DNA of 64,000 nucleotides from a virus. Where the stretch lies: the IMG/VR virus record IMGVR_UViG_3300021364_003460, positions 126,866 to 190,865 of that record. One strand, written 5' to 3'. The position numbers and the translations under genes are program-made. The notes under the pieces were generated by a model. The model was not told the origin of the DNA. It saw only the letters and a list, made by a program, of their open reading frames with translations, and made no database searches. Of this stretch, positions 39,666 through 60,389 are shown in pieces; the first letter of the stretch is position 1, and every line of letters starts with the position of its first letter.

Positions 39666-40091
39666 ATGAAATACAAACTAGAAACATTACTGGCTTTTAG
39701 AGCATTAAAAGAGACTATTTGGAAGTCTATTAAGAATGCAACTATTACAGATAACTTAGTATTAGAATTTGAAGCAGACTTAAAGAGTAACAAGGGTAAA
39801 CATAAAAAACAACTTAAGAATTTACTAAAGCAGCCTATACAAGATGAATATAAAACTTTGTTAACTGCTGAAATGTTAGCTGAGGGGTACTTATGTATAC
39901 CTATTAAAGGAGGCTGGGTAGTTATCAACCCTCAAGGTGAGAAATATGACTTAACTGAGAATGACTGCTCCTGTAATGATAAGACTTTATTAAATTATGA
40001 TGGTCCTTGTAAACATCTTGTGTTTAGAGATGGTTTAAACTTATATAGAAGTAGAGTTAACCAAGAGAAGATTAAGAGAGGCTTAACCTAA
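39666..40091 (+). CDS. SWIM zinc-finger protein
   Basis: YDLTENDCSC...PCKHLVF (CxC...CxH); GAGGAG SD. Confidence 0.8.
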   Translation: MKYKLETLLAFRALKETIWKSIKNATITDNLVLEFEADLKSNKGKHKKQLKNLLKQPIQDEYKTLLTAEMLAEGYLCIPIKGGWVVINPQGEKYDLTENDCSCNDKTLLNYDGPCKHLVFRDGLNLYRSRVNQEKIKRGLT

Positions 40092-41474
40092 AGGAAACCC
40101 TAACAAGTCTTTAATATAATTTCTTTCAGCTTCAGTCTTATTAAGTTGGTAAGGTTCAAACAAGTTTTTAATACCATCTAATATAGTTTTAAGTTCAGTG
40201 TCTCTAGCTGGCTTACATTGAATAGTTCCTGGATGCAGTGCTTCAGGAATTAATCTAGCATCAAAGTTGTATTGGATAAGTTGTAAGATAGCCTGGTTAA
40301 GTATATGCTCTACAACAAAGTCAAACAAACTAGCAATCATTTTATTAAACTGCTCAATTTGTCTTTCTGAAGTACCTCCACTACCTAAGCCTCCTATATT
40401 GTCTTTCATAATAAGGTTAGGTAGTCCCAAAATAGCTCTCATGTTATCATCACATAAGTCAATAGCATTGATAAAACTATCTGAGAAGTTATTACCTGTA
40501 GTCAATGCTCCTACTTCAACAGGTTGGTCTTTTGATAACTGAGTAAATACTAATGCAGATTCATTCTCTACTCCATCTTGTAACATCTCTGTTACTTTTT
40601 CCTGCATGCTCTTAGGTCTTACTTCCCCATCAGGCTCAGTAATCATTTCATCTGTAGCAGTAGGCGGAACTTTAACATAGATAAGTGGAGTAGCATATCT
40701 CATAGAAGCCTTAAATAAGATTTCTACAAAGGCGTGTTTATAGAGATACCAATAAAGACAAGCATTGATTAAAGACTTACCATAAAGGTTAGTAGCCTCA
40801 GACCTATAAGCCATGTATACTCTTTTACTTCTAGGTAGTCTTACTAAACTACCTACAGTATCAGTATTCTTAGATTTAGCTAGTTGAGGTACTTTATGTG
40901 GAGGTAGTGGAACCCAGACACCTGATTTGTAGACTTTATCATATACCTGCTCACCATCTTTTAGTATTCCATAGTCATTGGGTACTAAAGTTACTTGCAG
41001 TGGGTGGAAACTAATAAGATCATCTATCCAAGTTTGTGTCTCTTCATTTTTACCTATCTTTTGCATCCAGTTGATTTCCTGTACAGAATAACCAGACCAT
41101 AATGCAGTTCTTAAAGCATCTCTAACCCATTTCTTTAATTTAGTTTCTATGTTAGCTTGTACAAAGTCATCTATCTGAGAATTAGGGTGTGAATAGTTTC
41201 CTAACCTAGAAATGACTGCTGACTCAATATATTCTAAACCTTGCTTTACTATGGGTTCTTTTTCTCTTAAAGAGTCAAGTGCTACTAACTGATAATAGTT
41301 AGGTTTGTAGGTAGGAAAGTAATTATCAGCTTGTTCATTAGGAGTATATGACCTAGCAAAACCTAGTTGTCTAAATGCAGCAGGCTGTCTTCTATAAACT
41401 GCACTAGTATTGACTGGAGGTTTAGTTTCTAAAGTAGATATGTTTCCTTGAGTTGGATGAAGGTCAACTGCCAT
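40083..41474 (-). CDS. Portal protein (Mu gp29/DUF935-like)
   Basis: ALWSGYSVQEI.W; NLYGKSL...YWY.K; RYATP.IY.K; F...I..CD..M..ILG; AAGGAGG SD. Confidence 0.85.
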   Translation of the reverse strand: MAVDLHPTQGNISTLETKPPVNTSAVYRRQPAAFRQLGFARSYTPNEQADNYFPTYKPNYYQLVALDSLREKEPIVKQGLEYIESAVISRLGNYSHPNSQIDDFVQANIETKLKKWVRDALRTALWSGYSVQEINWMQKIGKNEETQTWIDDLISFHPLQVTLVPNDYGILKDGEQVYDKVYKSGVWVPLPPHKVPQLAKSKNTDTVGSLVRLPRSKRVYMAYRSEATNLYGKSLINACLYWYLYKHAFVEILFKASMRYATPLIYVKVPPTATDEMITEPDGEVRPKSMQEKVTEMLQDGVENESALVFTQLSKDQPVEVGALTTGNNFSDSFINAIDLCDDNMRAILGLPNLIMKDNIGGLGSGGTSERQIEQFNKMIASLFDFVVEHILNQAILQLIQYNFDARLIPEALHPGTIQCKPARDTELKTILDGIKNLFEPYQLNKTEAERNYIKDLLGFPLG

Positions 41475-41641: not shown

Positions 41642-42453
41642 TTATCCCATTTGAAATGTTGGTTTAGGCACTGTAGCAAAAGGACTAACATAAGGTGCAG
41701 ATTCCTGATTACCAGATATCTGTTTCATCAAACTATCTTTCTCTTCTTTTTCTTTCTTGTTTCTAGCTTCTATAACTGAAGAGACTGCTTGGTAGATAGC
41801 TTCCTGCCAATAAATATCTTTAGTTAGCCATTTATCTAAGTCCATTCCTGTTTGGTTAGCTACAATAACCCATTTTTCTAAACCTGCACTCTCTTTATAG
41901 TAAGTACCTACACTTTGGATTACTTGAAGTTTAAAACACTCAAACTCATAATCTGTAATGTAAGTATATAAAGATTCTCTTCCTAGTAAGCAGCCTCTAT
42001 ACTTGTAAGTTAAGTCTATTACTGGAGGCAGTAAAGTACCTCCATAATAGTTAGCAAATAGATTTAGCTTGCGCTCTTTCCAGTGGGTTGACTGGGTGCT
42101 GATTTCTTCTGAGTACCAACTAAGCTCTCTCCACTCAGTAGCTTTTTTGCAGCTTCTTTTGCGGTCTCTCTCTTCTCCATATCAGAGAAGTTTAATGCAG
42201 AGAAAATGTCAAAGTAGTAGAAAAAGTCATTTAAGTTCATTTGACCAATCAAAGTAACAGGGTCAATGTTAGCAGGAGTGGGTTCACCATCAATAGCTTC
42301 AATACATCTGATGGCAATCATGTCTTCTGCTGGTACACCTGTTTCTTTATCATAGTTTTTGTAAACTTCACTTTTATCTCTGTAGACTGCTGATCTAAAG
42401 GTAATTACTGCTTTGGAGTTAGGTAACTCAATTTGAAAAGGAGTTGTAGACAT
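41642..42453 (-). CDS. Tail assembly chaperone GT, product of a programmed -1 frameshift (~270 aa)
   Basis: A_AAA_AAG at 42148-42142; the -1 frame is open from there through the 67-aa ORF (MDLDKW...) to TAA at 41642. Confidence 0.75.
42064..42453 (-). CDS. Tail assembly chaperone G (129 aa; start revised to MSTTPFQ)
   Basis: IELP.S...ITFR...D; acidic helical C-terminus; in-frame slippery heptamer near the 3' end. Confidence 0.7.
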   Translation of the reverse strand: MSTTPFQIELPNSKAVITFRSAVYRDKSEVYKNYDKETGVPAEDMIAIRCIEAIDGEPTPANIDPVTLIGQMNLNDFFYYFDIFSALNFSDMEKRETAKEAAKKLLSGESLVGTQKKSAPSQPTGKSAS

Positions 42454-42460
42454 ATTTAAT

Positions 42461-42540
42461 TTTATACTCTTTTTAATAACTGTCTTTAATGTAGAGTTTA
42501 AAAAGAGTATAAAGTAGGCAAACTGTATATTGAGCCTACT
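42461..42540. promoter_or_regulatory. Tandem inverted repeats in the divergent chaperone/giant-gene intergenic region
   Basis: 16-bp perfect IR 42461-42476/42498-42513; 7-bp IR 42513-42519/42534-42540. Confidence 0.55.
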
Positions 42541-42603
42541 AGAACTAATGTAAATTGAGATAGCTTTATCAAAGTAATTAGCACAGCTTTCTCTAATTTC
42601 AGT

Positions 42604-45600
42604 ATGCAAGAACCATATAATTTTGAAGGGATATTTAAAAGTAGAGACAATGATAGTAAACCTAGCTTTCTAAGAGATGTAGTTAGGTTACACACTCATA
42701 ACTCTATGGAAGGTAATAAAGACTTTATCTTAGATAGGGAAGACCAGTTTGAAGGTTTCTTTTCTAAGAACTTTCAAGACCAAATAGAACAAAGAAGTAG
42801 AAACTTAGATTACAACAATAGAGAAAGGCTGACTAGAGAAGCTGTCTTTGAGCATGCTAATTACAGTTTTACAAGTAAACTACTTAACAATGCTAATGGA
42901 GTTATGGGAAGAATGTTTGCTTCTTTTGAGACTCCTAACTTGTTTGATGACTCTGATGAAAGTGAAAGGTTTGGTAGGGAGACTTTACATGAGTTTCTTA
43001 ATATACTAAAAGAGCCTGATGATATTAGAGAAAAGAGAATTAAAGAAAGTGTAGCCCCCAAACCTATAGCTGAAATGAACTATAAGTTTGATAACTACAT
43101 TAACAGTAATATTGAGAATGCTGAAAATGCTAGTAGACATATCAATAAAGATATTAGAGACTTTACTAATAGAGTTAATGCTCAAGACAGTATTATCAAC
43201 TATTTTACTAAAGGAGGACAAACTAGGTCTGTTAAGTTACTAGATAATGTTGGATACATCAACAGACCTGGTATTCTGCCTGCTATAAGTATGATTCATG
43301 ATGCTGAGAGTGAGTTATCTATTAATATCTTCCAGCTACAAAACAAACCTATTATTGACTATCTAACTTCTGACTTAGTTAACAGAGCAGAAGAGATTAG
43401 AAAACAAAGAAGACAGGGTGTTCAAGTTGATAACTTTAAATTCAGACTACAATTAGCTTGGAATGAAGAGTTAGCTAATGATGCTGCTGGTTACAATATC
43501 CTTGGACCTAACTTAACTGCTATTAGAACCTTTCAGAACTTAGCAACTAAGTATGCTGATGCTTTAGATATTACTGTGCAAACACTAGATAGAAGAAATC
43601 ATACTAAATTAATATTCAGTGACCAAGGGGCTTATATCTCTACACAAAACCAAACTGCTCCTGTAGGTAAGTCACTGTATCAAGCTGGTAGTAACTATGA
43701 ATCAGGTAGGTATGTTAGAAATCTACAGATTACTCAAGATAGTACAGTTAGTGAAAGAGGTGAAGCTAAACTCTACCAACAGGTAAAAGAGTTGCAAACT
43801 AAAATGTTTGGGCAGCAAAAGCTACTGCAAACTAATCAACCTAACATTAGTGGACCTGTAGAAACCTATGAGATGATGAGGTCTTCTTTAGATTACCTAC
43901 AAAAGAATAAAGGTAAAGGAGTTAAAGCAGACTTTATATTAGACCAAGTATTTCTCCTTCAATATGACAGTATGTTGTTTGATAAAGTTGCTGAAGGAGA
44001 AATGGGTCCTGAGTCTAAAGGTACTATAAAGAGAGTAATAACAGACTTAGATAAAAAGAAAGCTAAATATAGAGCTGATATACAAGAACCTTTAATGCTG
44101 GCTCTTATAGAAGGTAACGCTCATGTTACTACTGATGTTAGAAATTTTAAGCAAAATGTTCAAGAACCTATCTATACAGAGTTAATGAAATTAGATAGCT
44201 TTAGAGACAGTGGCTATAACTTAGATACCTTCTTAAATGATGATATATCTTTACCTACTGAAGAGAGAATTAGACGAGTAGAGGCTAAAGTAGGTAGTAG
44301 AAGTAGAGCTATCCAATTGTTAGCTATGACTTCTGGTAATATCCAAACAGCTAATGTACCAAGGCAGCACGTTAAAGCCAGTTTACTATACAGAACAAGT
44401 CCTAATGGTATTGAAGGTATAGCTGGTGAACTAAGCAGTTCTAACAGAGGTTTATACTCTATGTCATTAGTAGATAGTGACTTTGAAAGAGATATGACTA
44501 ACAATGAGTTAGGTATGATGTTCTACTCAGAAGACTTTGCTAAGGGACTTAAAGTGACTAAGCAAAGTCCTTACTCTTTAGAAAGTAATGAGGTTACTGA
44601 AGAGTTACAGGAATACACTAAACATTACATTTCTATGAAGTCTGATTTGTCTACAAGAAGAGTAGGTCAACTTGAGTATAGTAATGTTAACAACAGAGCT
44701 GAGTGGGAAAAGGATGTAGATAGAAAGAAACTAGCAAACTTGTTTGATAGCTTAAATGAGATGAACAAGTCTACTGGTGGAGATGCTATGAAAATTAGCT
44801 ATGACTATGATAGCAAAGGTCCTATTTCAATCTTAGTTGACTTAAACAATGGCTTAAAGTATAGGTTTACTGCATTACAAGGTGGAGTTAATAACCAAGG
44901 TTTTATCTATGAAATTAACAAGTCTAAAGTAATAGGTGAATCTGACTTTATTAACCAAAGTTCAGAAAGTATTAGAACTAGCTTTACTGATAATGGTAAT
45001 CCTTTGTTTATAAAAGCAGGTGAGAGGTTAACTCTAACTCCTATACAAACTACTATGTCTATGATTAGTAGTATTAGTTTAGAGGCTTCTCAAATAAGGT
45101 TAATCAGAGCACCCTTAATAGAATACCAAACTCATTATGCTCCAGGTGCAGAAGGTAGTGATAATTTTGATGCTGGTATCTCAAGGTATTTGTTAGCTTT
45201 ATCTGGTTATAGTGATAGAGGTGTTACTGATGTACTTAGCATTGACCAAGGTTCTATTATCAAAGGTGCATTAGAGAACTTACAACTAAGGATGCGTAAT
45301 AGTGATGCTACCTTAGATAAAGTTAGACAGTTTGCTGGTATAGATATTAATAATGAAGATAGACAAGCTAAACTACAATATCTAACTGATTTGATTCAAG
45401 TCTTTGGTAGTGTAAATGCTAATGATAGAAGACTGCTAATTACTGGAGAAGGCTTAGATGGCAGACAGAGTTTAAAGAGATTTATGTCTTCTCTGTTTAG
45501 CAGCCATGAGTATGCTGATGTACTTTATGACTTTATCCAATCTCAAGGAGACCCATTATACCAGCAAGCTACAGCTAATTATGTTAAAGAAGTAAGTAGT

Positions 45601-48600
45601 AGAGTGTTTGACCCTTATCTTAACAGAACTCAGGTTAGTGTATATGGTTCTACTCAAGCATATAGACAAAGACCTCTTTATGGTGTTAATGAAAGAAGAA
45701 CTGCCTTTGGTAGAGGAGTTAATAATGCTGCTCTTAGTAGTCTACAAGGTATGTTTAGATTAGGAGGCTATGCTTTAGCCGCTTCCCCCTTTGACCATAA
45801 TGCTACTGCTGACTTTGGTACTGACTTTAAAAATGGTAGTCTGCTCTTTATTCAGATTACTGGTACTGGAGGTAGTAGAGAAAAGTCAGGTTTAGAATAC
45901 TCTGGATATAATGAGTATGATAACTTGTTACCTTACTATCAGCATAAGAAGATAGGTACTGCTACAGGATTAGATATTATACAAGATGCTGGAGTAGGGT
46001 CTATTATAGATAAACAAAGTGTAACTGACTATAATAAGGCAATCGCCCACTTAGGACTTACTGTAGATTCAGATGACTTACTGCAAGGTAATGACAGGAT
46101 GTTGCTCTTTAACTTTGATGTTAAAAAGAAAGCATCTCAGATACCCCAGCGTATTAAGAATGTTATTGGTAGTAGACCTACTATGGAACTTACTACTCAA
46201 CTACAAGAATTAATAGAGTTAGGTAGCACCAAGTTTGCAGGTCAAGACATTAATAATATAGAAGCATTAAGGTCATCATACTTATCTAATCTTAGAAATA
46301 GAGTAGGAAATAAAGCTAACCTAATCACAGATATGTATGCTGTAGGTATAGAGTTTGGTGGACAGATTAGAGCTACCCTTAGTAATGATGTTGCAGAAGT
46401 TTTAGAATCTATTAGAGAAGATGTAAACACAGAGTTTGAAGGTGTAGATGAAGATACTAAAGCTGAAATATTAAGAGTTAGATTACTAAATGCAGACTTA
46501 TCAGGGCATTCTATTAGAAGCTTTACAGGTAGTTCAAAAAGAACAGGAAACTCATTTGTACTATTCCAACTTAGTGGAGCTTACTCAGATTACTCATTCT
46601 TAAACCCTGAGTTTGGCAGCACTGATACCTTAGATGGGATGCGAACTGGGTTTGCTGATAGAGCGGTTAAAGGTCATCAAGCTAGTAAGTTAAGTAGTCA
46701 AAGGTTGTTAGGTGCAGAAGGTGACTTTAACTTAGCTGATGAACTGCTTATCAAATCAGGTAGCTATATTAAGAGAGATAAAGAGACAGGTTTATTTCAT
46801 GTGTTCTCTTTTGATGAATCTCAGAATACTTATATTAGAGGGCAAGCTATCAGTTCTAGAAAAGAGTTTACTGTAGTTAGAAACCTGTTAGAAGCTGTTA
46901 AAGCAGAGCCTTCAATAGGTAGGTTAGGGGCAGTTAGTAATGCTGCTTCTTTTGAAGGAGAAATGGCTATAGAAATCCTTAGAGATGTAAGAATATTAGA
47001 AGGCGAAGTTACCTCTAATGAAATCAGAACTGAGATAGATTACATAAGAACTGGTAGAAGAGGTGGTAGTGCTAGACAGGAATCTCTATCAGGAGGACTA
47101 GCTAAGATGGTTCCTATTTACCTTTATGATGTAGACAATACTGAGAGAGGTAAAGGTTTACTCAGGCAAATGTTTGAACAATTTGAGAGAACATCAGGAA
47201 GAGTTGGTTCATTTGAAGGTGCAGGTAAACTAAGCTATAGTCAGTTTTATGGGGTAGTTAACCCAAGTAACCTTAAATCTTACTTCTATGAGCATGGTGC
47301 ACAGATACTAATAGATAGTAAGAAGAAAGCTGCACTATTAGGTACTGACGGTAAAACATTAGCTGCTGCTTTAGTAATGTCATTTGGTACTAGTAGATTT
47401 GCTAGTGGAGATAGAAATGGAGTATTAACTCAGTTAGCTAAAGTTGCTGGGAAAGGTCAATTAGGTCAGTTTTATCAAGACCAATATTTACTAAGCTTTT
47501 TACAACATAAAGGAGATGTTACTAAAGTTGGTGAAGGGTTTATTAATAGCTTTGTTGATAAGAAAACTAAAACAGAAAGTATATCCAACCTTCAAGTTAG
47601 AGCATTAGAATACATTGGTTTAGATTTAATCAGAGATGCTCTAACTGGAGCAAATCCTAATGCAGCTAGTGAAATTCAAAAGAGAGTAACAGACTTGTTA
47701 ACTGACACTACTGGGGTAGTAGGTAAAGAGTACCTTAATACAGGTAAAGATAGAGGTAGAGAGATGGCTATTATAGCTGCCTCTTTAGACTACTTTGTAC
47801 AGTTAACTCAAGCACAGGCTCATGATATAGCAGTAGTAAATACTACTAAAGATAGGTCAGCTTATTTGTCTTTAGGAACTATTGGAGGCATGAGCTATGA
47901 AGAATTAATTGAGAGAGAAAATGAAGGATTAAATCAACTAGTCAACCAATTAGGTAGAAGGTCATATACAGTTGGTATGTGGATGAGTTTATCTGGCTCT
48001 CAAAGTAAAGTAGCTATATCTAGTAAACTAGAATCCTTTATTGAAACTCAACATACTATCTTTGAACCTTTCTACACTAACTTAACTAAGTTTCAGAAAG
48101 GTGGTTCATTAGACTCACTTAGACAACTAATGGCAGGTTTCTATGGAGCTATGGCTGGTACTCATACAGGTGAGTTTCTTAATGCTATGTCTGGATTACA
48201 GCAAATAAACTTACTTGATACTAGAAACCCTATCTTTGCTTCTAAAATGGTTGGTTACTATAATGACCCCTTTACTTCAGATGCAGAGTTTAAAGAGTAC
48301 CAAAGAAATTATGAAATGTTTGGGGTGCTGCAATCTTTAGTAAGTAATGAGACAGGAGACACTATTAATGCAGCTTTACTAAAGAAAGTAATAGAAAAGT
48401 ATAGAAAGAATGCTGATGGATTAGACCTAAATCCAGATACCTTAAATACTGAACTTAGTAACCTAATAGAAGCTGCTGAAAACAACCAATTAGGTAGAGT
48501 ACAAGAAATCATTAATCAAGGTTATGAGTACAGTCTTTACCACTTTGAAAGAATGTATGCTGACTTTAGATTAAATCCTGATAAAGGAGATGCTAATGCA

Positions 48601-51600
48601 GGTCAAGCTATCTCTACAGGTTTACAAAGAAGTGCAGGAGCTAAAGGTAGGTTTGCATTCACTTTACCTGTAATGGAGTTTAATGATGATGGTAGTATTA
48701 AAGTTTATAAGAATAGTTTACAGAGAAGTTTCTCTCTAGCAGGTGAAGATTTAAAGATTATTGGTGAAAGCTTTGGTAACGTAGATGCTCCTATTCTTAA
48801 ATCTCAAGCTATCTTATGGCAAGCATTCTCTCCTAATAGTGCAGTAAGCAGGTTATTAGATAGAATCAATGATGGTAAGTCTATTAGTGAAATAGATGTT
48901 AGTGTAGAAGATTATGAAGAAATTATGAGATTCTACATTACAGCTATTAATATGCCTGTTGAGATAACAGAGGCTGTAGGTGTCTATGGTAATAAAATAC
49001 TAGGTAACAAAATAGGGTTTGCAGGAGGTACTACTACACCAGCAGCTTGGTTTATGGGAGGTACTCAAATGAGTATTCTACCTGAAACTATTATGGAGAG
49101 ACATGGTGCTGGTAGTAGTAATAGGAGAGATGCTTATGATAAAGTGTTGCAGCAGATTAAAGGTATAGATGAAACTTCTCAAACTATTTCTAATATAAGT
49201 GAAGATAAAAGAAACTTACAAATACTCAAAAAGTATTATTCTAATAGATTTGTAGACGCTGCTGAAAGAACCCCTTTAATCCAGGAAACTAAATCTAAGC
49301 AATACTTAACATATCTTGCTAGAACTCTTAACAAAGGTATATCAGCAGCGTCTACTTCTGAACTTAATTCATTAATTGAAAAGAGTAAAGAGTTTCAAGA
49401 GAGATTAAGTTTAGCAGGTAATAATGAACTTGAGCTTAATAGAATTATTACTGAAATAGAAGGTGGAATTTCTAATGAATCTAAATACTCTATTGCTTAC
49501 TACAGAAGAAGACTTCAGATTACTAATGTAGATGATAAAGAAAGGTTTGGAGTTAACTTAAATGAAGGTGGAGATCCCTTTGTTGACTTACTAGGTTTAT
49601 ATGAATTAAGAACTCTTAGGGCAGCAGCTATTAGTCAAGGAGGTACTTCTAGTAGGCTTAATGGTGAAGCTTTAGATAAAAGTCTAGAATTTGCTGAAAC
49701 TATGAAGCACTTTTACTCTCCTTTTAGAGGATTAATGATAGGTTCTCAAGCTGATACTAATCTACCTAAAGTTACCCCTGAAGAAATGGCACTTGAAATG
49801 AGAAGAGGTGCTAGTAAGTTAGAGAAAGCATTAGGTCTTAACTTTGATTCCATTAGCGGGTTAGAAAAAACAGCAGGTAAAATTTACTTTGAGAAAGTAA
49901 TAGGTAATATAGAAAACTTTGCTAAGGAAAGAATAGATGAGTTACAAAATAGATATAACTCAGAAGTTAATGGTGAGTTAGCTGAAGGTACTATAAAACG
50001 ACTACAAAAAATGATAGCTGATGTCAAATCTTATGGTAATAGATTAAGTGACGACATGAGTGAATATGATGTTAGAGATATAGCTTTATTACTAACAGGT
50101 GAAGTTGAGAAGTACCATGCTGAAATTAACTTAGGTATTACTCAGTCAATGAGACCTTCTCCTATGGGAGGTTCTTACTTAGGTAGAGCAGTCTATGACA
50201 CCTTTGGATTAGGAGATGTTAATAGATTAATGAGAAGCTGGGAGCTACCTATTAGCTTTACTCCAGGTGGACAAGAAGATGTAGACCACAGAAATAAGAC
50301 TCTTCACTTGTTTAACCCTTATAGCTGGTTAGTCAGTCACCTTGGAGACTTTGATGGAGACATGATAACTAATATGTTCAGAACTACAAGTCAACTAGAC
50401 TTGAGAGTGAGAACTTATGATGCTTCTATTGCTGCTGCTAAAGAAGAATTAATATTACTAGGAAATAAGATAAATGCTACAGTTCCAGATACAGAAGACT
50501 ACACTAAGTTAATTAAAACTAAAAGTGATACTGAAGATAGAATAGTAAACCTTGAGAAACAGAAAGCTGAGTTTAGTAGACTATCTCAGCAAACTAAAGA
50601 CAACACTACTTATAAAGAATATCAAATAGCTGCTGCTAAGTGGGTTGGCAACTACCTTAAAGTAGACTATAGAATGTTTCTAGATGAAAAACATGGTGGT
50701 TACAGATTAGAAAGTCAAGGTAATGTACCTCCAGAAGTATTGTTTACTTACACTGAACAAGGTAGAGGTTTGTTTGGTGGGATGGAAGCTATTGTTACTA
50801 AGTCAATGGATTTGTTTTATGACTTTAGAAAGTTAGCTGAGAATAAGTTGACTCTACAGACTTGGGGAGACGTACAGAATAGATTAGATAATCTTAATGA
50901 TTCTGGTTTAAAAGAACTAATACAAAAAGGTAATTTACCAGATGAACTTAGGGATGAAATCATTAGATTAAGTAGTGACTTTGAAGGAGACACTTTAGGT
51001 AGAGATGCTGCAATAGCTGAATATGTAGCTAGGTTATACAGTAGCCAATCAGGTTTAGAAACCTTACAAAAATACAACTTAAAAGGTATTGATGGATCCG
51101 CTATGACCCCTGACATCTTCATGGCTATGGAGAATACTTTAGGTCAAGCAGGTTCAGTAGTGTTAGGTAAATCATACAACACAATGGTTGGTATGTTGTA
51201 TACTGAGTCTCCTAACTTAGCTTTAAGTTATGCTTTACTAAATGACCCCGATGAGAAACTCCAAACTATTGTCAGGGAAGCTTATGGTGGTGGAGATATA
51301 GGTTTAGCTAAGTACAATGAACTAAAAGATGCTGCACAGCATAGCTTCCTTAAATCTCAGCAGATGGGTGAGTTTCTACAAGCTACTCAACAGATACTTA
51401 GAGATAGTATTAAGCCTAAAGATGCTGCTTTGTTTATTAAAGAGTTAGAAGAAGCTTTATTGAAGTATAGAAGTATAGAGGATGCTGATAAGAAACAGGA
51501 AGCTTACACTGAAATAGTTAACAAGTTTGGTCCAGGTAAAGGTTTAAAAGCTCTTATTCAAATGGAGTCTTTAGTACAAGATTTAACTATACTTAATAAT

Positions 51601-53628
51601 CAAATTAAAGATGACAATAAAGACCTACAATTACAGAAAACTTTAGAGAAGTATGAGTTAACTGATACTAAGAAAGAAGAGTTATTAAAGAGGCTAGGTT
51701 ATGATGAAACTACTGGTGATTATGATGTTTTCAGAGAAAGAGATGCTCAAGGTAATGTAATTGGCAGAGGATTCAATCAAAACATAGCTGCTGCTCAACT
51801 CACTAAAGAGTACATAGTAGCAGCTTACAAGACTAAACAAGATATGGTATCTGTGGTCTCTGACTTTGCTTACAGTAAAGGGCTAAATGATGGAGACTCT
51901 ACAGGTAGAAGTATGTTGTCTTCTTTTAGAGAAAACTTTAGTAAGTTTGATTCTACAGAGCAAGCTAGAATTACTAAGTTAGTACAAGCAGCAGATTCTT
52001 ATTTTACTGGAGGTGCAGACTTAGTTGGGTTAGCTGATGCTGAAAGTCAAGCCTTTATTGAAGCTTTGATAGATAGAGAGAACCAGCATAGGTCTTCTTA
52101 TGTTGATGAAGAAGGTAAGTTTGATAGAAAAAAAGCTAAAAAATGGTCTTGGACAACAGAAGACTATGAAGGTAAAACTGCTCAACAAGAAGAAGATTAT
52201 TATAAGAAACTATATGAAGCTCACGTTTATGCAACTACCTCTGATGCCTTTGGTAAGACTGTAGGTGACAATGGTGAAATGTTTATTAGGTTTGCTCAGT
52301 TTAACCAAGCTAGAAGAGATGTATATAGTGATAACCATTGGAGAGATACTGCTACTGGATTTGATATATTAAGTGACCCTCTAGCTATGGCTGAGATGTT
52401 AGGTATGGTATCAGGTAAGGTTACTCCTGAGTTCATAGGTAAAGCTATGAGAGTAGTAACTAATGCTGTTAGACAAAAAACTGGTGAAGCTAATCCTAGT
52501 TTAGAATCTATTACTAATGTAATCTTACAGGGTACTAGCATGAGTGAGACTCCTGAAGATAGAAAGATGAAGGAGATGTTTGCTTTTGTTCAGTCTAAAG
52601 ATAAGAGTGCTACAGAGCTATTAATGCAGACTGTAGAGAGCATGGCTTTAGGTAATATGTCTGCTACTGCTAAGGAGTTCATACAAAGAGGGCAGTTTGA
52701 TAACCAAGAAAACTTAACTCAAGCAGTCTTAAAAGAACACTTCTCTAAGATGGGATTTGATGCAGATGAATCTAATCTATTAGCTAACAGAGCTACTATG
52801 AGAGTTACTCAAGGTGCAGTAGCCCAAGTAGAAGCTAAGAAGATGATGGACAGAAACCAAATGGTTAATGTAATAGGTAGTCTTGGTAAAGATGCTGATG
52901 TGAAGGCTCAATCATTTATCTTTCCTGCATTAGGTCTCATAGGAGCAGCATTAGCTAGTGGTGACTTATCTCCAGAAGCCTTCCAAGTGGCAGCAGGTAC
53001 AGCACTAACCAACTTAAGTTATGTAAGGTGGAATAACCTTGAAAGTAATTTCAAAGGTACTGCTATGAATATGATTGGAGGTGGTGCTTTCAAGATGAGG
53101 TTAGCTCTACAAGAAAATGAAGGGGATGCAGGTAAAGCTATAGTCACTATGGCTACTAGAGAGTTAATAATGGGCAGTACAGCAGCTATAGTTAACAAAT
53201 ACGGCAGTGAGTATATTAATAAAGCTTTAGGGGGAATTAAGACTTTAGACTTTGATAGGTTTGAGTCTGCTAGAAATGTGGCTACCTCTACTATAACAGC
53301 AGTGGCATCTACTCTATTAGGTATGATGTTAGGTAATGGAGTGTTAGCCGCTGGAAAAATTATTAATAATGAGATTAATGAATCTGAACAAATAGTTAGT
53401 AAGATTAACCAAAGTATTCAACAAAGAGTATTCAATCAAGCTGCTGTTGAAGAGGAAGAAGAGTTAGCAGTTGAAGGGGATGGTGAATTCTTAGAATACA
53501 AAACTGTACATAACTGGGGAGAAGAAACTGATGTGGATTACACTACAGAAGAGTGGAGTATTAATGAAGAATTTAATTATGCTTTCAATAACACTCCTGT
53601 AGGTATGTACGCATTTGAACTTACTTAA
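42604..53628 (+). CDS. Giant 3674-aa protein: PLD-family domain + two-barrel RNA polymerase-like region + tape-measure-like C-terminus (candidate virion RNAP)
   Basis: H333-x-K335-x4-D340 and H589-x-K591; ILGNKIGFAG...Q..LP (~2132-2160), R2517-P, D2582FDGD2586; hydrophobic C-terminal helices. Confidence 0.7.
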   Translation: MQEPYNFEGIFKSRDNDSKPSFLRDVVRLHTHNSMEGNKDFILDREDQFEGFFSKNFQDQIEQRSRNLDYNNRERLTREAVFEHANYSFTSKLLNNANGVMGRMFASFETPNLFDDSDESERFGRETLHEFLNILKEPDDIREKRIKESVAPKPIAEMNYKFDNYINSNIENAENASRHINKDIRDFTNRVNAQDSIINYFTKGGQTRSVKLLDNVGYINRPGILPAISMIHDAESELSINIFQLQNKPIIDYLTSDLVNRAEEIRKQRRQGVQVDNFKFRLQLAWNEELANDAAGYNILGPNLTAIRTFQNLATKYADALDITVQTLDRRNHTKLIFSDQGAYISTQNQTAPVGKSLYQAGSNYESGRYVRNLQITQDSTVSERGEAKLYQQVKELQTKMFGQQKLLQTNQPNISGPVETYEMMRSSLDYLQKNKGKGVKADFILDQVFLLQYDSMLFDKVAEGEMGPESKGTIKRVITDLDKKKAKYRADIQEPLMLALIEGNAHVTTDVRNFKQNVQEPIYTELMKLDSFRDSGYNLDTFLNDDISLPTEERIRRVEAKVGSRSRAIQLLAMTSGNIQTANVPRQHVKASLLYRTSPNGIEGIAGELSSSNRGLYSMSLVDSDFERDMTNNELGMMFYSEDFAKGLKVTKQSPYSLESNEVTEELQEYTKHYISMKSDLSTRRVGQLEYSNVNNRAEWEKDVDRKKLANLFDSLNEMNKSTGGDAMKISYDYDSKGPISILVDLNNGLKYRFTALQGGVNNQGFIYEINKSKVIGESDFINQSSESIRTSFTDNGNPLFIKAGERLTLTPIQTTMSMISSISLEASQIRLIRAPLIEYQTHYAPGAEGSDNFDAGISRYLLALSGYSDRGVTDVLSIDQGSIIKGALENLQLRMRNSDATLDKVRQFAGIDINNEDRQAKLQYLTDLIQVFGSVNANDRRLLITGEGLDGRQSLKRFMSSLFSSHEYADVLYDFIQSQGDPLYQQATANYVKEVSSRVFDPYLNRTQVSVYGSTQAYRQRPLYGVNERRTAFGRGVNNAALSSLQGMFRLGGYALAASPFDHNATADFGTDFKNGSLLFIQITGTGGSREKSGLEYSGYNEYDNLLPYYQHKKIGTATGLDIIQDAGVGSIIDKQSVTDYNKAIAHLGLTVDSDDLLQGNDRMLLFNFDVKKKASQIPQRIKNVIGSRPTMELTTQLQELIELGSTKFAGQDINNIEALRSSYLSNLRNRVGNKANLITDMYAVGIEFGGQIRATLSNDVAEVLESIREDVNTEFEGVDEDTKAEILRVRLLNADLSGHSIRSFTGSSKRTGNSFVLFQLSGAYSDYSFLNPEFGSTDTLDGMRTGFADRAVKGHQASKLSSQRLLGAEGDFNLADELLIKSGSYIKRDKETGLFHVFSFDESQNTYIRGQAISSRKEFTVVRNLLEAVKAEPSIGRLGAVSNAASFEGEMAIEILRDVRILEGEVTSNEIRTEIDYIRTGRRGGSARQESLSGGLAKMVPIYLYDVDNTERGKGLLRQMFEQFERTSGRVGSFEGAGKLSYSQFYGVVNPSNLKSYFYEHGAQILIDSKKKAALLGTDGKTLAAALVMSFGTSRFASGDRNGVLTQLAKVAGKGQLGQFYQDQYLLSFLQHKGDVTKVGEGFINSFVDKKTKTESISNLQVRALEYIGLDLIRDALTGANPNAASEIQKRVTDLLTDTTGVVGKEYLNTGKDRGREMAIIAASLDYFVQLTQAQAHDIAVVNTTKDRSAYLSLGTIGGMSYEELIERENEGLNQLVNQLGRRSYTVGMWMSLSGSQSKVAISSKLESFIETQHTIFEPFYTNLTKFQKGGSLDSLRQLMAGFYGAMAGTHTGEFLNAMSGLQQINLLDTRNPIFASKMVGYYNDPFTSDAEFKEYQRNYEMFGVLQSLVSNETGDTINAALLKKVIEKYRKNADGLDLNPDTLNTELSNLIEAAENNQLGRVQEIINQGYEYSLYHFERMYADFRLNPDKGDANAGQAISTGLQRSAGAKGRFAFTLPVMEFNDDGSIKVYKNSLQRSFSLAGEDLKIIGESFGNVDAPILKSQAILWQAFSPNSAVSRLLDRINDGKSISEIDVSVEDYEEIMRFYITAINMPVEITEAVGVYGNKILGNKIGFAGGTTTPAAWFMGGTQMSILPETIMERHGAGSSNRRDAYDKVLQQIKGIDETSQTISNISEDKRNLQILKKYYSNRFVDAAERTPLIQETKSKQYLTYLARTLNKGISAASTSELNSLIEKSKEFQERLSLAGNNELELNRIITEIEGGISNESKYSIAYYRRRLQITNVDDKERFGVNLNEGGDPFVDLLGLYELRTLRAAAISQGGTSSRLNGEALDKSLEFAETMKHFYSPFRGLMIGSQADTNLPKVTPEEMALEMRRGASKLEKALGLNFDSISGLEKTAGKIYFEKVIGNIENFAKERIDELQNRYNSEVNGELAEGTIKRLQKMIADVKSYGNRLSDDMSEYDVRDIALLLTGEVEKYHAEINLGITQSMRPSPMGGSYLGRAVYDTFGLGDVNRLMRSWELPISFTPGGQEDVDHRNKTLHLFNPYSWLVSHLGDFDGDMITNMFRTTSQLDLRVRTYDASIAAAKEELILLGNKINATVPDTEDYTKLIKTKSDTEDRIVNLEKQKAEFSRLSQQTKDNTTYKEYQIAAAKWVGNYLKVDYRMFLDEKHGGYRLESQGNVPPEVLFTYTEQGRGLFGGMEAIVTKSMDLFYDFRKLAENKLTLQTWGDVQNRLDNLNDSGLKELIQKGNLPDELRDEIIRLSSDFEGDTLGRDAAIAEYVARLYSSQSGLETLQKYNLKGIDGSAMTPDIFMAMENTLGQAGSVVLGKSYNTMVGMLYTESPNLALSYALLNDPDEKLQTIVREAYGGGDIGLAKYNELKDAAQHSFLKSQQMGEFLQATQQILRDSIKPKDAALFIKELEEALLKYRSIEDADKKQEAYTEIVNKFGPGKGLKALIQMESLVQDLTILNNQIKDDNKDLQLQKTLEKYELTDTKKEELLKRLGYDETTGDYDVFRERDAQGNVIGRGFNQNIAAAQLTKEYIVAAYKTKQDMVSVVSDFAYSKGLNDGDSTGRSMLSSFRENFSKFDSTEQARITKLVQAADSYFTGGADLVGLADAESQAFIEALIDRENQHRSSYVDEEGKFDRKKAKKWSWTTEDYEGKTAQQEEDYYKKLYEAHVYATTSDAFGKTVGDNGEMFIRFAQFNQARRDVYSDNHWRDTATGFDILSDPLAMAEMLGMVSGKVTPEFIGKAMRVVTNAVRQKTGEANPSLESITNVILQGTSMSETPEDRKMKEMFAFVQSKDKSATELLMQTVESMALGNMSATAKEFIQRGQFDNQENLTQAVLKEHFSKMGFDADESNLLANRATMRVTQGAVAQVEAKKMMDRNQMVNVIGSLGKDADVKAQSFIFPALGLIGAALASGDLSPEAFQVAAGTALTNLSYVRWNNLESNFKGTAMNMIGGGAFKMRLALQENEGDAGKAIVTMATRELIMGSTAAIVNKYGSEYINKALGGIKTLDFDRFESARNVATSTITAVASTLLGMMLGNGVLAAGKIINNEINESEQIVSKINQSIQQRVFNQAAVEEEEELAVEGDGEFLEYKTVHNWGEETDVDYTTEEWSINEEFNYAFNNTPVGMYAFELT

Positions 53629-54500: not shown

Positions 54501-55381
54501 TGTGGGGTAGCAGTCCTCTCAGCTAGTTCAATATTAGGTAATTGGCCATAATTAGTATTCCAGAAGTTATCAGGTAGGTTAGCTAACCCAGGAGGTTTTA
54601 ACCTATTTTGATAAGGAGTATTGTAAGGGTGAACTAAAGTTAGAGGCTCCTGTTGGTTAAAAAGGTTAGCAGGCACATAAGTTCTGTAAGCATACTCCCC
54701 ATAGAAATTAACTGTAAGCTCTGTATGAGAATTAAGTGTAATATCTTTAAATGTAATCTCAAGGTAGGGTTTAGTTAAAAGAACAAAGTCTTTGTTAACT
54801 AATTCTCCAATATCAGAATCAGTGGATTTGAGTCTTACTTCTACAGGGTCAACTACCTGAATAGTAGCTCCTAATGCTTGTCCTACATTAATAAGTAAAG
54901 TGTAGTTTTCAGGTAGAGGCTCATACTCAACTAAGCTACTTTCACTATCTGTAGTGCTAGGTCTAGTCCAAGTAAGTGTATTAGTAATCTTATGTTTGTA
55001 AATAACCTCTTGTCTAAACTTAGTTTCTTGTTTAGTCCACTCATTGAAAGGTAAAGTGTACTTGTAGTGAGAAGAATAGCTAGTCTCTTGAAAGTAAGAA
55101 ATAATAGTGTAATAGAAATCAGCTTCCCATTGGGGGTCATAAGCACCTAACTCTATCTTTACTAACTTAGCTTCATTGTAGGGAAAAGAAAGTAATGAGT
55201 AGTTGCGGCTGACTATATTACCATTAGTATCTACTTGCTGAGTAGCTATCTCCCATGAGTCACCCCATTGTTCATAGAATTGAGTAAGAGTAGCTGTAGT
55301 AGTCTCTTCAGGTAAGTTAAGTTGAAAGTTATCTAATGGGTTATTTTTAATAGTTGGAATCATATAAATATTAGCTACCAA
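54491..55381 (-). CDS. Hypothetical, possibly virion protein (296 aa)
   Basis: Long ORF coupled to the PAAR gene. Confidence 0.65.
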   Translation of the reverse strand: MVANIYMIPTIKNNPLDNFQLNLPEETTTATLTQFYEQWGDSWEIATQQVDTNGNIVSRNYSLLSFPYNEAKLVKIELGAYDPQWEADFYYTIISYFQETSYSSHYKYTLPFNEWTKQETKFRQEVIYKHKITNTLTWTRPSTTDSESSLVEYEPLPENYTLLINVGQALGATIQVVDPVEVRLKSTDSDIGELVNKDFVLLTKPYLEITFKDITLNSHTELTVNFYGEYAYRTYVPANLFNQQEPLTLVHPYNTPYQNRLKPPGLANLPDNFWNTNYGQLPNIELAERTATPQWL

Positions 55382-55631
55382 TAAACACAGTTGAGGAACA
55401 TTGAACTATCACTCCACAGATAACTTTAGATTTCAGATGTGCAGCAGGCCTACCATCTACAAATACTGATGAGGAACCTGATATGCAGACTCCGGGTACA
55501 GACTTATCACCTAGTCTAACTTGCCCTCTACCATCTACAAATGAACTAAGTGAGGAAGTAAAGAAAGGTCCACTTGATCTAAAAGGACAAGTCTTAACTA
55601 CAAAGTCTCCTCTTCTAATTGCTCCAAGCAT
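55371..55631 (-). CDS. PAAR-motif spike tip protein
   Basis: S.FVDGRGQVRLGD...C...SSSVFVDGRPAAH...C...SSTVFIG. Confidence 0.88.
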   Translation of the reverse strand: MLGAIRRGDFVVKTCPFRSSGPFFTSSLSSFVDGRGQVRLGDKSVPGVCISGSSSVFVDGRPAAHLKSKVICGVIVQCSSTVFIGS

Positions 55632-55898: not shown

Positions 55899-56272
55899 TA
55901 CATTAAGTAACCTCTATACAATTGTTCTAATCTTTCTAAATAAAGTAAGTGAGCATCTTTCATCATTACTCTATAAATAGAATGATCAACTGAAACATAA
56001 TCTTCTGTATTAATAAGTAGTCTTTCTAATTCTACTCTAATTTTAAAAATAAAATGGGATAGCATAGGAACATTATCATACAATCCATAATAATAAGTAT
56101 CACTAGCTTTACTTGTAGATGAATTAAAACTCTTATAAGTTAAACAAGAAGGAAATGTATCTATTTTAGATAACTGATTTAAATTATCTACTGTCCAACA
56201 TAAGTTATAAATATATTCTTCTAAAGTTTCTGCTTTAATAACAAAGAACTTTTCTAATTTAAGTGTATACAT
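55898..56272 (-). CDS. Hypothetical protein (start revised to MYTLKL)
   Basis: ATG at 56272 avoids overlap with the ligase start. Confidence 0.55.
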   Translation of the reverse strand: MYTLKLEKFFVIKAETLEEYIYNLCWTVDNLNQLSKIDTFPSCLTYKSFNSSTSKASDTYYYGLYDNVPMLSHFIFKIRVELERLLINTEDYVSVDHSIYRVMMKDAHLLYLERLEQLYRGYLM

Positions 56273-56281
56273 AATTGCTTT

Positions 56282-56893
56282 ATGAAATATAAGTATCCTA
56301 GAACCCCTCACTTACCTTTTAGTCCTGGTGCTACTTCAGATGACATCTTTAGTACAACTAACTTTAAAGGTAGGGAGATAGTTATTACTGAAAAGATGGA
56401 TGGTGAAAACACTAGTCTTTATTCTAATTACTACCATGCTAGAAGTATTGATAGTAAGCATAATGAGTCTCAATCTTGGTTAAAGAACTATCACTCTCAG
56501 ATAGCTTATAAGATTCCTCAAAACTGGAGGTTATGTGGAGAGAATCTTTATACAGTCCACTCACTTTCTTATACTAACTTAAAGAGCTATTTCTTACTAT
56601 TTAGTATATGGGAAGAAGAACTATGTTTAAGTTGGCAGGATACTGTAGACTTTGCTAGTGAATTGGAAGTAATTTTAGTTCCTGTACTTTACCAAGGTGA
56701 GTATAGTGAAAAGCTAGTTAAAGAGTTAGTGGCTAGTTTAGATTTGACTAAACAAGAAGGAATTGTAATTAGAATAGCTGACAGTTTTAAGTATAGTGAA
56801 TTTAGTAACTCAGTAGCTAAATGGGTTAGAAAGAATCATGTAACTACTGCTAATCACTGGAAACAAAGTAAGCTAGAACTAAACACTCTCTGA
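56282..56893 (+). CDS. RNA ligase (Rnl2-like nucleotidyltransferase domain only)
   Basis: KYPRTPHL..SPG...DD; motif I TEKMDGEN; HARS; GENL; F.LFSIW; EGIV.R; KWVR..H. Confidence 0.88.
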   Translation: MKYKYPRTPHLPFSPGATSDDIFSTTNFKGREIVITEKMDGENTSLYSNYYHARSIDSKHNESQSWLKNYHSQIAYKIPQNWRLCGENLYTVHSLSYTNLKSYFLLFSIWEEELCLSWQDTVDFASELEVILVPVLYQGEYSEKLVKELVASLDLTKQEGIVIRIADSFKYSEFSNSVAKWVRKNHVTTANHWKQSKLELNTL

Positions 56894-57367
56894 GACCTCA
56901 ACTATTTCATCTATGTCTACTTCTACTTGATTCTTACCGTCATTGCTATAAGTTTCTACAAGTAAGTCTTTTAGAGTTTGGTAAGCTTTAGAAGTAAGTA
57001 ATAACTTATTAGGGTCTTTGGGATGGAATTTAAAGTCATTAAAGGTAGGGTTAGCTGTTAACTTATCTTTAGGTTGGTTGCTAACTAGAAGGTAATATAA
57101 GTCATCTGCTGTTAACATAGGTGTCATAATAGCTCCATCTTCTTCAATAGTTAGAGAGTTGAGCCATTCATAATGGTTAGGATACTTATCAAACAAAGTA
57201 CCAATCACTTCATCCATTATTAACTCTACTATAGCTGGAGAATATATCTCAAGAAGGTGTTCTTGATAGTCTATTAAAGCATACTTATCTTCATTTCTAC
57301 ATACTTCTATGAGGTAGTTTTTAGCAGCATTAAACAGTCTTGTGTTAAATAGTTTTGTTTTACTCAT
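56879..57367 (-). CDS. Hypothetical protein (162 aa)
   Basis: ORF with AAGGTG SD-like sequence upstream. Confidence 0.65.
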   Translation of the reverse strand: MSKTKLFNTRLFNAAKNYLIEVCRNEDKYALIDYQEHLLEIYSPAIVELIMDEVIGTLFDKYPNHYEWLNSLTIEEDGAIMTPMLTADDLYYLLVSNQPKDKLTANPTFNDFKFHPKDPNKLLLTSKAYQTLKDLLVETYSNDGKNQVEVDIDEIVEVSESV

Positions 57368-57479
57368 ATCACCTTTGTCCTAAGTAGTATATCTACTATT
57401 CAATTGTCTACATACTAGTCTACCAGTATATGTAACCAATGTGTATTATTAAGATAGGATGTTTACCATGTATTAAATT

Positions 57480-58013
57480 ATGAAATCATTAATTAGTTTA
57501 GTTTTGTCAGGTTTGTTAGTTGTTAGTAGTGGTGGTGAGGCGATCGCTAACAGTAGAAAGAAACCTCTATGCAGCTACCCTATAGAGTCTAACTCTGATA
57601 CTAATAAAGTGTATAGATATCCTAAGTTTGGTATTTCTATGGTAATGCCAGATAACTTAGTCTCTATGCTGCTTCAGGATGGTAGTATTGATATCATTGA
57701 TAGGGGAACTTATAAGCTACTTCAATGTCCTAGAAGTGAAAGGATAGGTAGGGGTGCACCTGGTACTAGAATTAGCTGGGCTGATGATACTACCTATCAC
57801 TACTCTACTAACATAAAAGAGAATGTAGACTTATATATAAGAAAGGAGGGTGGAGAATACCCTACTTACTTAGTTATCCTCAGATTGGTTAATAAGAAAG
57901 GTCAGCTTATAGATATTAATATCTATGATGAAGGTCCTATAGATAGCAATAATGTAAAAGGATTTATTAAGGACTACATTAAGTTGGGTAGATCAATAGA
58001 GTTTATAGACTAA
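57480..58013 (+). CDS. Hypothetical exported protein with signal peptide
   Basis: MK + hydrophobic stretch + AIA-like cleavage region. Confidence 0.65.
   Translation: MKSLISLVLSGLLVVSSGGEAIANSRKKPLCSYPIESNSDTNKVYRYPKFGISMVMPDNLVSMLLQDGSIDIIDRGTYKLLQCPRSERIGRGAPGTRISWADDTTYHYSTNIKENVDLYIRKEGGEYPTYLVILRLVNKKGQLIDINIYDEGPIDSNNVKGFIKDYIKLGRSIEFID
57540..57547. repeat. HIP1 octamer
   Basis: GCGATCGC encoding A-I-A; shares GGCGATCGCTAACA with the copy at 279-292. Confidence 0.7.
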
Positions 58014-58075
58014 GAAAGGTTAGTATACATTGCTGAGTGGTAGTGTATACTAAAGAAAGTATAAGTTATTAATTT

Positions 58076-58438
58076 ATGATAAAACAAGTAACTTTAACTA
58101 GAAAACAGTATGACTTTGCTTCAAAAGAGTATACTAACTTAGAAGACATAAGTGACTGCTCTATTAAATTCTATAAAGATAATGAGGGCATAAGGGGTGC
58201 TGACTTAAAAGTACCTGTCACTACTCTTTTGAGAGAAGATATTAAAGAATATAAATTAGGTTACTTAAGGCTTCTTGGTAGTGTAGATAAGTTTAGCTTT
58301 AGTTGTACTATAGAAGATACTTATTATCTTTTTAGAAGGGGTTTACTAGAAAGTATAGAAGATAATACAGCTCTCTCTGACAAGAGAGATTCTTTAGCTA
58401 ACTTCTTTTTTATTGATGACAGAATAACAATAATATAA
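58076..58438 (+). CDS. Hypothetical protein (120 aa)
   Basis: ORF. Confidence 0.6.
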   Translation: MIKQVTLTRKQYDFASKEYTNLEDISDCSIKFYKDNEGIRGADLKVPVTTLLREDIKEYKLGYLRLLGSVDKFSFSCTIEDTYYLFRRGLLESIEDNTALSDKRDSLANFFFIDDRITII

Positions 58439-58614
58439 TGAATAAACCTTACTGTAGTAAAAGATATGGAGGAGGGTATTTGAGATATGGTTGAGAGAAA
58501 GTGTTAGGTGGAGAGTTGGGTTTACTATATCTTTGAGAATACCAGTTTTTGTGATTCATAAGGTACTTATATTAATAAAGTATAAATTTATTCAGGAGGT
58601 ATCTTAGGAAAAGG

Positions 58615-58729
58615 ATGAGAGGACTAAAAAGTATATAGGGTAAGGGTTCTAGCTATTTATTGAATAACCTATATCTCTTACTTCATATTATCTTCCTCTT
58701 ATTAGTCTCCTTACCTATAGTCCTCTCAT
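58615..58729. repeat. 12-bp perfect inverted repeat in a skewed non-coding region (candidate origin)
   Basis: ATGAGAGGACTA (58615-58626) / TAGTCCTCTCAT (58718-58729); purine-rich then pyrimidine-rich blocks. Confidence 0.5.
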
Positions 58730-58888
58730 ACCTGTCCTCTTAGTCCTAGCTCCCTCATCTCAGTCTCCTATAAGTCAGTTAGCGCAAAACAGCCATTTCA
58801 AGACTTAACAGAAATCCTTTAACTCTAACTTGGTATACTTTAACCCTGAAGATTCTCTAGCATAATCAATAGCTAATAACAAACTTTG

Positions 58889-60340: not shown

Positions 60341-60389
60341 GTTATAATATCTCTAGTGTTATAATAGTTATAATTAGTTTATAGGCATA

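Follow-up and report, generated by a model that had tools for sequence, protein, structure and literature searches.

The virion RNA polymerase of coliphage N4 is ∼3,500 aa long, with a central polymerase between large N- and C-terminal parts, and is a T7-like enzyme (right-hand fold) rather than a two-barrel one. Two-barrel virion RNA polymerases have been described from Thermus phage P23-45 and from phi14:2, a crAss-like phage. The P23-45 enzyme, gp96, is a fusion of a virion RNA polymerase with the tape measure protein; it is 5,002 aa long and carries DFDGD at residues 779–783 (Chaban et al. 2024, PMC10770324). It was discovered by searching virion proteins for DxDxD, and its activity, virion presence and structure are experimental (PMC10770324). 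The phi14:2 enzyme, gp66, is a virion RNA polymerase of a podovirus, with 2,180 aa and the motif DFDID (Drobysheva et al. 2021; PDB 6VR4). These papers agree with the initial annotation of the locus described here, which had cited both proteins as single-chain two-barrel virion enzymes.

Here we describe a giant protein of a Microcystis-phage-like myovirus, in which that annotation had placed a two-barrel RNA polymerase active site and which it took to be injected for early transcription. We conclude that the protein probably represents a new, very diverged phage two-barrel RNA polymerase family. It would be a very diverged single-chain two-barrel (cellular-class) RNA polymerase within a large virion-module protein. 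The full claim, that this polymerase is both injected and active, is plausible and in our judgement evenly balanced between right and wrong.

By function, the closest described systems are P23-45 gp96 and crAss phi14:2 gp66; by layout, the closest is N4 vRNAP, whose size is also similar, although this likeness is by analogy only. Like gp96, the present protein is a giant virion-module protein that contains DFDGD, otherwise shows no detectable similarity to known polymerases, and has membrane segments in its non-polymerase part (predicted here by hydropathy). However, the polymerase of gp96 is N-terminal, whereas the putative core is here central (aa 2582) and lies behind a PLD-type domain. Moreover, gp96 is a siphovirus protein in the tape-measure position, whereas this gene comes from a myovirus and is flanked by portal and baseplate genes, on the opposite strand. 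The P23-45 protein is an experimental enzyme; here, activity, virion presence and structure are predicted or inferred. With gp66 the protein shares a large single chain in the virion module, a DFDxD loop, and the absence of a recognisable homologue for most of the chain, but a ∼140-aa connector joins the two barrels of gp66, whereas here a variable insert lies inside the predicted beta'-like barrel. Unlike for cellular multisubunit RNA polymerases, no alpha or omega partners and no sigma factor were recognised in the phage genome. The family would be set apart in four ways: its occurrence in myoviruses, its PLD-type N-terminal domain, a barrel split by a hypervariable insert, and the lack of detectable sequence similarity to these described systems.

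Gene neighbourhood and protein family

The window, i.e. the whole 64-kb stretch of DNA analysed, forms the end of a virus record 190,865 bases long. Its gene order tracks that of Microcystis phage Ma-LMM01 (genus Fukuivirus). Translation of the window yields a single open frame of 3,674 aa (P0001; Table 1) that, judged by sequence, is the orthologue of Ma-LMM01 gp080. The frame lies on the plus strand, flanked by the Mu-type portal and PAAR/baseplate genes, and in distant relatives the giant gene still adjoins a Mu-type portal and PAAR/baseplate genes. In the BFVD/UniProt table, the Ma-LMM01 orthologue is labelled ‘PLD phosphodiesterase domain-containing protein’. A Pfam-based scan of the whole 190,865-base record recognised no RNA polymerase, with neither PF00623 nor PF00940 present, and no sigma factor, alpha or omega partner.

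Table 1. Features of the giant open frame and its neighbours (positions in the window)
Feature	Position (nt)	Strand	Details
Tail sheath	28857-31091	-	baseplate and spike genes come next, also on the minus strand
Major head protein	35604-36902	-	
Mu-type portal	40083-41474	-	
Giant ORF	42604..53628	+	3,674 aa, P0001; PHROG 31006 ‘unknown function’, E 4e-221; no Pfam family
PLD-type HKD motifs, N-terminal	43600..44451	+	H333-x-K335-x4-D340, H589-x-K591; nearly invariant in alignment A1
Conserved block, candidate position of a beta-like second barrel	46279..47463	+	aa 1226-1620: QLSGAYSDY..NP, R1491..K1501, NPSNLKSY..EHG
First half of predicted beta'-like double-psi barrel	48991..49113	+	aa 2130-2170: GNKIGFAGGTTTP ... 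ILP; G2141 nearly invariant
Helical insert in predicted barrel, poorly conserved	49114..50118	+	aa 2171-2505; helical, confidently modelled
Second half of predicted barrel	50119..50388	+	aa 2506-2595: R2517-P-S-P, NKTLHLFNP, GDFDGD, strand after
DFDGD, candidate Mg2+-binding catalytic loop	50347..50361	+	D2582, D2584, D2586
Long antiparallel helical hairpin after predicted barrel	50389..50643	+	aa 2596-2680; matches generic coiled-coil hairpins only
Conserved EQGRGLFG loop	50755..50778	+	aa 2718-2725
LGxAGxxxLGK(S/T)YN helix	51139..51201	+	aa 2846-2866; G2850, G2855, Y2858, N2859 invariant, K2856 nearly; modelled as a long helix
QQILRDSIKPK, basic/acidic cluster	51388..51420	+	aa 2929-2939; Q2930, R2933, D2934, K2937 invariant in 42 sequences
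Conserved C-terminal region	52900..53355	+	two hydrophobic, membrane-span-like segments (hydropathy), aa 3433-3456 and 3559-3584
PAAR	55371-55631		

Among phage records, tblastn matched only one Microcoleus phage and the Ma-LMM01/MaMV group, whose proteins are ∼25% identical and carry the label ‘hypothetical protein’. A word-index protein search returned 14 metagenomic relatives, and a profile search of 1.84 billion representatives returned 52 proteins, which stand for 52 representative clusters at 50% identity. All 52 are giant, and those that appear full-length span 3,000–5,400 residues. Scans of viral and metagenome contigs supplied further loci; neither the single protein nor the full-length alignment retrieved relatives from viral contigs, and alignment A2 retrieved none from genome contigs. 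The architecture of the protein is kept across the family: HMMs for the N-terminal part, middle blocks, motif region and hydrophobic C-terminus match 44–52 family proteins apiece (51 for aa 1226–1620 and 46 for aa 3400–3674), and an HMM of aa 2990–3400 matches just 29.

The DFDGD loop and the predicted split barrel

The translation contains GDFDGD at aa 2581–2586 (nt 50344–50361, with DFDGD at nt 50347–50361), where the initial annotation had put it, and the other strings that it quoted are likewise in place: FNPYSWLVSHL before GDFDGD, R2517 within SMRPSP, and ILGNKIGFAGGTTTP...SILPETIM at aa 2132–2163. We estimate from residue frequencies that DFDGD would arise by chance ∼0.002 times per protein of 3,674 aa; chance does not account for the motif, which occurs once per protein at a homologous position across relatives. 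It is single-copy and homologously placed in 16/16 first-round relatives, and G-D-[FYWL]-D-G-D is found once, at the same aligned position, in all ∼57 giant proteins that span the region, including Ma-LMM01 gp080 and reaching down to 16–20% identity. Retention of the motif in homologues, on which the annotated active site depended, thus extends to every region-spanning protein. In an alignment of 42 sequences over aa 1940–2990, down to 16% identity, D2582, D2584, G2585 and D2586 are invariant, as are R2517, G2850, G2855, Y2858, N2859, Q2930, R2933, D2934 and K2937. The family therefore has the invariant DxDxD loop, typically DFDGD, that characterises the two-barrel superfamily. An FG-GAP or other DxDxDG calcium loop was considered and rejected, because the motif is single-copy and no conserved Gly follows its last Asp.

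Sequence and profile methods recognised no polymerase in the protein. Pfam assigned no family to the 3,674 aa at E up to 1, bar a chance SLATT_5 row; RNA_pol_Rpb1_2 (PF00623) and the other curated polymerase families gave no match above cut-off, and PHROGs, run on the whole protein, gave no function (PHROG 31006). Searches of all PDB chains, by phmmer and by profile hmmsearch, returned nothing or coiled-coil noise, and hhalign of the family profile found nothing against phi14:2 gp66 (probability 0.1–0.2%) and no significant link to E. coli rpoB. Similarity to the gp96/gp64 or gp66 families was thus undetectable in the PDB searches and in the comparison with gp66. Against E. coli rpoC, the top local hhalign match sets DFDGD on NADFDGD, although weakly (E 0.014–0.017, 3% probability). 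The ESM Atlas was uninformative when searched by shape and by features, a weak feature match being to the ‘large polyvalent protein’ domain LPD38 (score 0.82). This failure of sequence methods agrees with the published remark that two-barrel families have little in common outside the DxDxD region (PMC10770324).

The same null results, together with the LPD38 match, would also suit a protein that is not a polymerase at all, but a structural, ejection, tape-measure or ‘polyvalent’ virion protein in which DFDGD binds metal otherwise (structural Ca2+/Mg2+, or a hydrolase) and the barrel described below is an AlphaFold2 artefact. Most of the region is helical and coiled-coil, as in tape measures, and the C-terminus bears hydrophobic segments. 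We nonetheless consider this reading unlikely, if still a serious competitor: the motif keeps its polymerase form (three Asp, Gly and aromatic residue) in every family protein that spans the region, and both conserved halves of the putative barrel stay together at any insert length.

The insert in the putative polymerase barrel is hypervariable. From GNK..LP (aa 2134–2160) to R2517 the spacer is 357 aa in the window protein, and across the family it ranges from 33 aa (L032) to ∼1,470 aa (L028); by our own reading of the rpoC sequence, the equivalent spacer in E. coli beta' is ∼55 aa. Distant members have spacers of 33–72 aa, too short to hold a separate domain, and the two conserved stretches must therefore form one domain. 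If modelled correctly, the catalytic double-psi barrel would carry inserts of more than a thousand residues. This range, the single chain, and the absence of a PF00623 match all distinguish it from the cellular beta'/Rpb1 barrel.

Structure prediction was carried out on the window protein and on a compact homologue. For aa 1940–2990 of the window protein (1,051 aa; 29 alignment rows), AlphaFold2 gave a mostly helical model (pLDDT 66.7, pTM 0.38) in which the conserved motif stretches fall below pLDDT 50, and comparison of this model with known structures by Foldseek and VIA yielded helical noise only, with no polymerase match. The homologue, P0015 (35–39% identical; insert 106 aa), was modelled over aa 2055–2569 from 38 rows enriched in trimmed fragments, with moderate confidence (mean pLDDT 71.6, pTM 0.47; the RxxP stretch is below pLDDT 50). 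Strands in the P0015 model coincide with the GNK and TLHL stretches and also lie ahead of the RxxP stretch and immediately behind DFDGD. In VIA-align, model residues 144–365 superpose on the catalytic barrel found in the largest subunits of RNA polymerases, chains of which account for ∼15 of the 50 matches listed among the Foldseek candidates that were re-aligned; the remaining matches listed are generic, to the helical hairpin (model 361–435) or the three-helix insert (model 199–279). Model residues 144–175 align to E. coli beta' from residue 344 (G344-K345, of the GKRVDYSGRS segment), and residues 282–365 align up to beta' residue 476, ending 12 residues past the last Asp on both sides. With GNK on GKR at beta' 344 and this common end point, the superposition is in register with the motif pairing. 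Foldseek matches of the P0015 model in the PDB were not significant, with a phage AR9 RNA polymerase subunit ranked second and Rpb1 and beta' chains in the top 50, and BFVD gave weak matches to jumbo-phage RNA polymerase subunits. An exhaustive VIA search of the same model returned helical hairpins and three-helix bundles, with no polymerases among the matches listed because helical matches filled the table.

The initial annotation had paired these stretches, in order, with segments of beta'. The pairing finds support in homologue P0015, where GNK..LP and RxxP..DFDGD form one predicted domain that superposes on the beta'/Rpb1 barrel and the loop lies inside a beta'-type double-psi barrel (DPBB-A), as it does in the two-barrel superfamily; the window's own model, however, is uninformative on this point. 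AlphaFold2, having seen many RNA polymerases, could have been drawn by the motif to a familiar barrel. Against a non-polymerase protein with an artefactual barrel, the sole non-helical matches listed after VIA re-alignment of Foldseek candidates are RNA polymerase barrels, from many lineages and in register at both ends. Given the fold evidence from P0015, aa 2130–2170 and 2506–2595 likely constitute a beta'-type catalytic double-psi barrel. The two stretches would fold together, the DFDGD loop is predicted to hold the catalytic Mg2+, and the helical insert that interrupts the barrel would be free to vary.

Candidate second barrel and downstream helices

The best-conserved part of the protein is the block at aa 1226–1620, where R1491, K1501, K1558, H1564 and G1565 are at least 90% conserved among 51 members. 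We conjecture that this block provides the beta-like half of the active site. The initial annotation had put forward RQESLSGGLAK as a candidate for the second barrel; its R and K are indeed conserved, but neither hhalign against rpoB nor the ESM Atlas feature search lent fold or profile support to the candidate or to a beta-like assignment of aa 1226–1620. A complex prediction that combined a block of this type with the barrel, both from homologue L003, speaks neither for nor against the assignment (ipSAE 0.01; the predictor gave ‘no answer’). By-eye pairings of aa 1320–1353 and 1491–1565 with beta motifs (GYNxED, GDK..RHGNKG, NPLGVPSR and GPYS..QQP) were dropped because they contradicted one another in order and had no statistical support.

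Downstream of the predicted barrel, the invariant residues of LGK(S/T)YN (2854–2859) and LRDSIK (2932–2937) sit on long predicted helices, for which structural comparison returned no match. These conserved helices may act as the bridge helix and trigger loop, the LGxAGxxxLGK(S/T)YN helix being the candidate bridge helix.

Expression, proposed delivery and the published view

Transcript data are available for Ma-LMM01, in which gp080 has log2 counts of 0, 0, 7.3 and 8.5 at 0, 1, 3 and 6 h and is assigned to class B5, ‘middle’; the portal gene gp083 shares this class, and the early genes gp054–063 are already abundant at 1 h (PMC5780444 supplementary file 4). With gp080 lacking transcripts at 1 h and the early genes high, its product must arrive with the particle if it drives early transcription. 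Such timing is compatible with a packaged enzyme, with an unpackaged middle/late enzyme, or with no role as a polymerase. We found no virion proteomics for the Ma-LMM01/MaMV group in the literature, and infer that the giant protein is packaged because its gene sits in the portal-to-baseplate module.

For a packaged polymerase, gene position and architecture suggest assembly into the particle late in infection and entry into the host with the DNA, either as an ejection protein or by way of the contractile tail. This entry may be aided by the hydrophobic segments at the C-terminus and the PLD-type domain at the N-terminus. The first phage genes would then be transcribed without the host RNA polymerase, as by crAss gp66, P23-45 gp96 and N4 vRNAP. 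More tentatively, Fukuivirus-like cyanomyoviruses (Ma-LMM01, MaMV and the metagenomic family) might inject through the contractile tail a ∼400 kDa multifunctional protein that comprises a PLD-type head, a complete fused beta-beta' core (∼aa 1226–2990) and a membrane-inserting tail.

Alternatively, a two-barrel RNA polymerase could remain unpackaged, as a middle-phase product that transcribes late genes in the manner of the non-virion enzymes of phiKZ/AR9 or P23-45 gp64. The ‘middle’ class of gp080, which rises before the major head protein peaks, would suit such an enzyme, but the portal gp083 falls in the same expression class and the gene always lies within the portal-to-baseplate module. 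Moreover, the family has conserved, besides the core, its size of 3,000–5,400 aa, its PLD-type head and its hydrophobic C-terminus, whereas the non-virion enzymes just named are far smaller. We therefore regard an unpackaged polymerase as improbable and retain the packaged one as our preferred reading.

The published view of these phages requires neither. In the Ma-LMM01 transcriptome study, the promoters of each of the three temporal classes were read as sigma-70-like and host transcription was reported to change little, and the three-phase programme was put down to slight differences among these promoters (PMC5780444). Sigma-70-like promoters and a little-changed host imply that no phage polymerase is needed, which counts against a polymerase reading of the giant protein. 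Ma-LMM01 and its relatives have been described as encoding no RNA polymerase and relying on host transcription (PMC9927357), and the MaMV-DH01 paper likewise describes a genome without an RNA polymerase. According to the initial annotation, such an enzyme is not known from a cyanobacterial myovirus, and the papers searched indeed tie the Fukuivirus giant protein to no polymerase. Because an invariant DFDGD loop lies in a predicted catalytic barrel, however, it is probable that this phage group, described in print as lacking an RNA polymerase, has one of its own.

As lytic phages of Microcystis, a toxic bloom-former, Ma-LMM01 and its relatives serve as models. If our proposal is correct, the early transcription of bloom-controlling phages would be independent of the host polymerase, against the published view, and a virion-borne polymerase would account for early genes firing without a visible change in host transcription. 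Giant virion RNA polymerases, known from N4, crAss and P23-45, would also gain a fourth independent lineage, and one from a contractile-tailed phage. The claim is directly testable in cultured phages. Very improbable is a two-barrel enzyme with another product, either a QDE-1-like RNA-dependent RNA polymerase or a DNA polymerase/primase of the archaeal PolD type, serving genome establishment: the two-barrel class contains such enzymes and the present data do not distinguish template or product, but the polymerase matches listed by structure are all DNA-dependent RNA polymerase largest subunits, with no QDE-1, RDR or PolD among them, and DFDGD is the motif form of DNA-dependent enzymes.

Motifs and inserts of the giant protein

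Near its N-terminus, the 3,674-aa giant protein, a candidate two-barrel RNA polymerase, carries two PLD-type HKD motifs (see table below). Both are almost unchanging across the family alignment. Pfam returned no match to either motif; the BFVD/UniProt table names the Ma-LMM01 orthologue 'PLD phosphodiesterase domain-containing protein'. The insert within the predicted barrel varies in length and exceeds 800–1,400 residues in some family members (L004, L008, L014, L022, L023 and L028, the last from IMGVR_UViG_3300047552_001097).

Positions of features in the window and in related loci
Feature	Location	Strand	Details
PLD-type HKD motif 1	window 43600-43656	+	HxKx4D...STQN; aa 333-351 of giant protein
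PLD-type HKD motif 2	window 44362-44451	+	HxK...SSSN; aa 587-616 of giant protein
Small ORF pair	window 41642-42609	-	head-to-head with giant gene
613-aa ORF	window 26168-28009	-	after sheath and probable tube gene
Ferritin/Dps-like gene	window 39106-39591	+	adjoins portal
Ferritin/Dps-like gene	L002:139-723		adjoins portal
Ferritin/Dps-like gene	L003:2027-2518		adjoins portal
Small-gene cassette	window 62065-63760		many intrinsic-terminator-like hairpins
44-nt direct repeats (two copies)	window 63277-63320 and 63680-63723		80% alike; each with GGTTCAATTC
Second large ORF of Ma-LMM01, gp064 (1,673 aa)	L001:34151-39172		adjoins early gene block and 42-bp repeat array

Tail genes and other neighbors in the virion module

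A pair of small ORFs adjoins the giant gene in the window phage, in Ma-LMM01 and in three further family members (L002, L003 and L019). The initial annotation reads this pair, from sequence, as a frameshifted tail chaperone; a PHROGs search with the pair returned an unknown family only. Should the pair indeed encode a chaperone, the giant protein might also serve as tape measure. Tape measure proteins generally span about 0.15 nm of tail per residue, and the tails of the Ma-LMM01-like phage group are reported as 170–260 nm. By this usual rule, the 613-aa ORF that follows the sheath and probable tube genes, which matched no known family, looks too short to measure such tails. The virion module also includes a ferritin/Dps-like gene, which is kept next to the portal gene in the window phage and at L002 and L003.

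Repeats and hairpins in the small-gene region

Intrinsic-terminator-like hairpins are abundant toward the end of the window, with 14 in positions 56000-64000 versus 3.2 expected. The small-gene cassette in this interval could be an early region; in Ma-LMM01 the early genes include gp054-063. A repeated element, GTT(A/T)ACAGC.CAAGGAGAA, precedes two genes (at 62113 and 63777). The GGTTCAATTC stretch inside both 44-nt repeats resembles a tRNA T-arm, and, judged by sequence, these repeats could represent either tRNA genes or elements resembling tRNAs.
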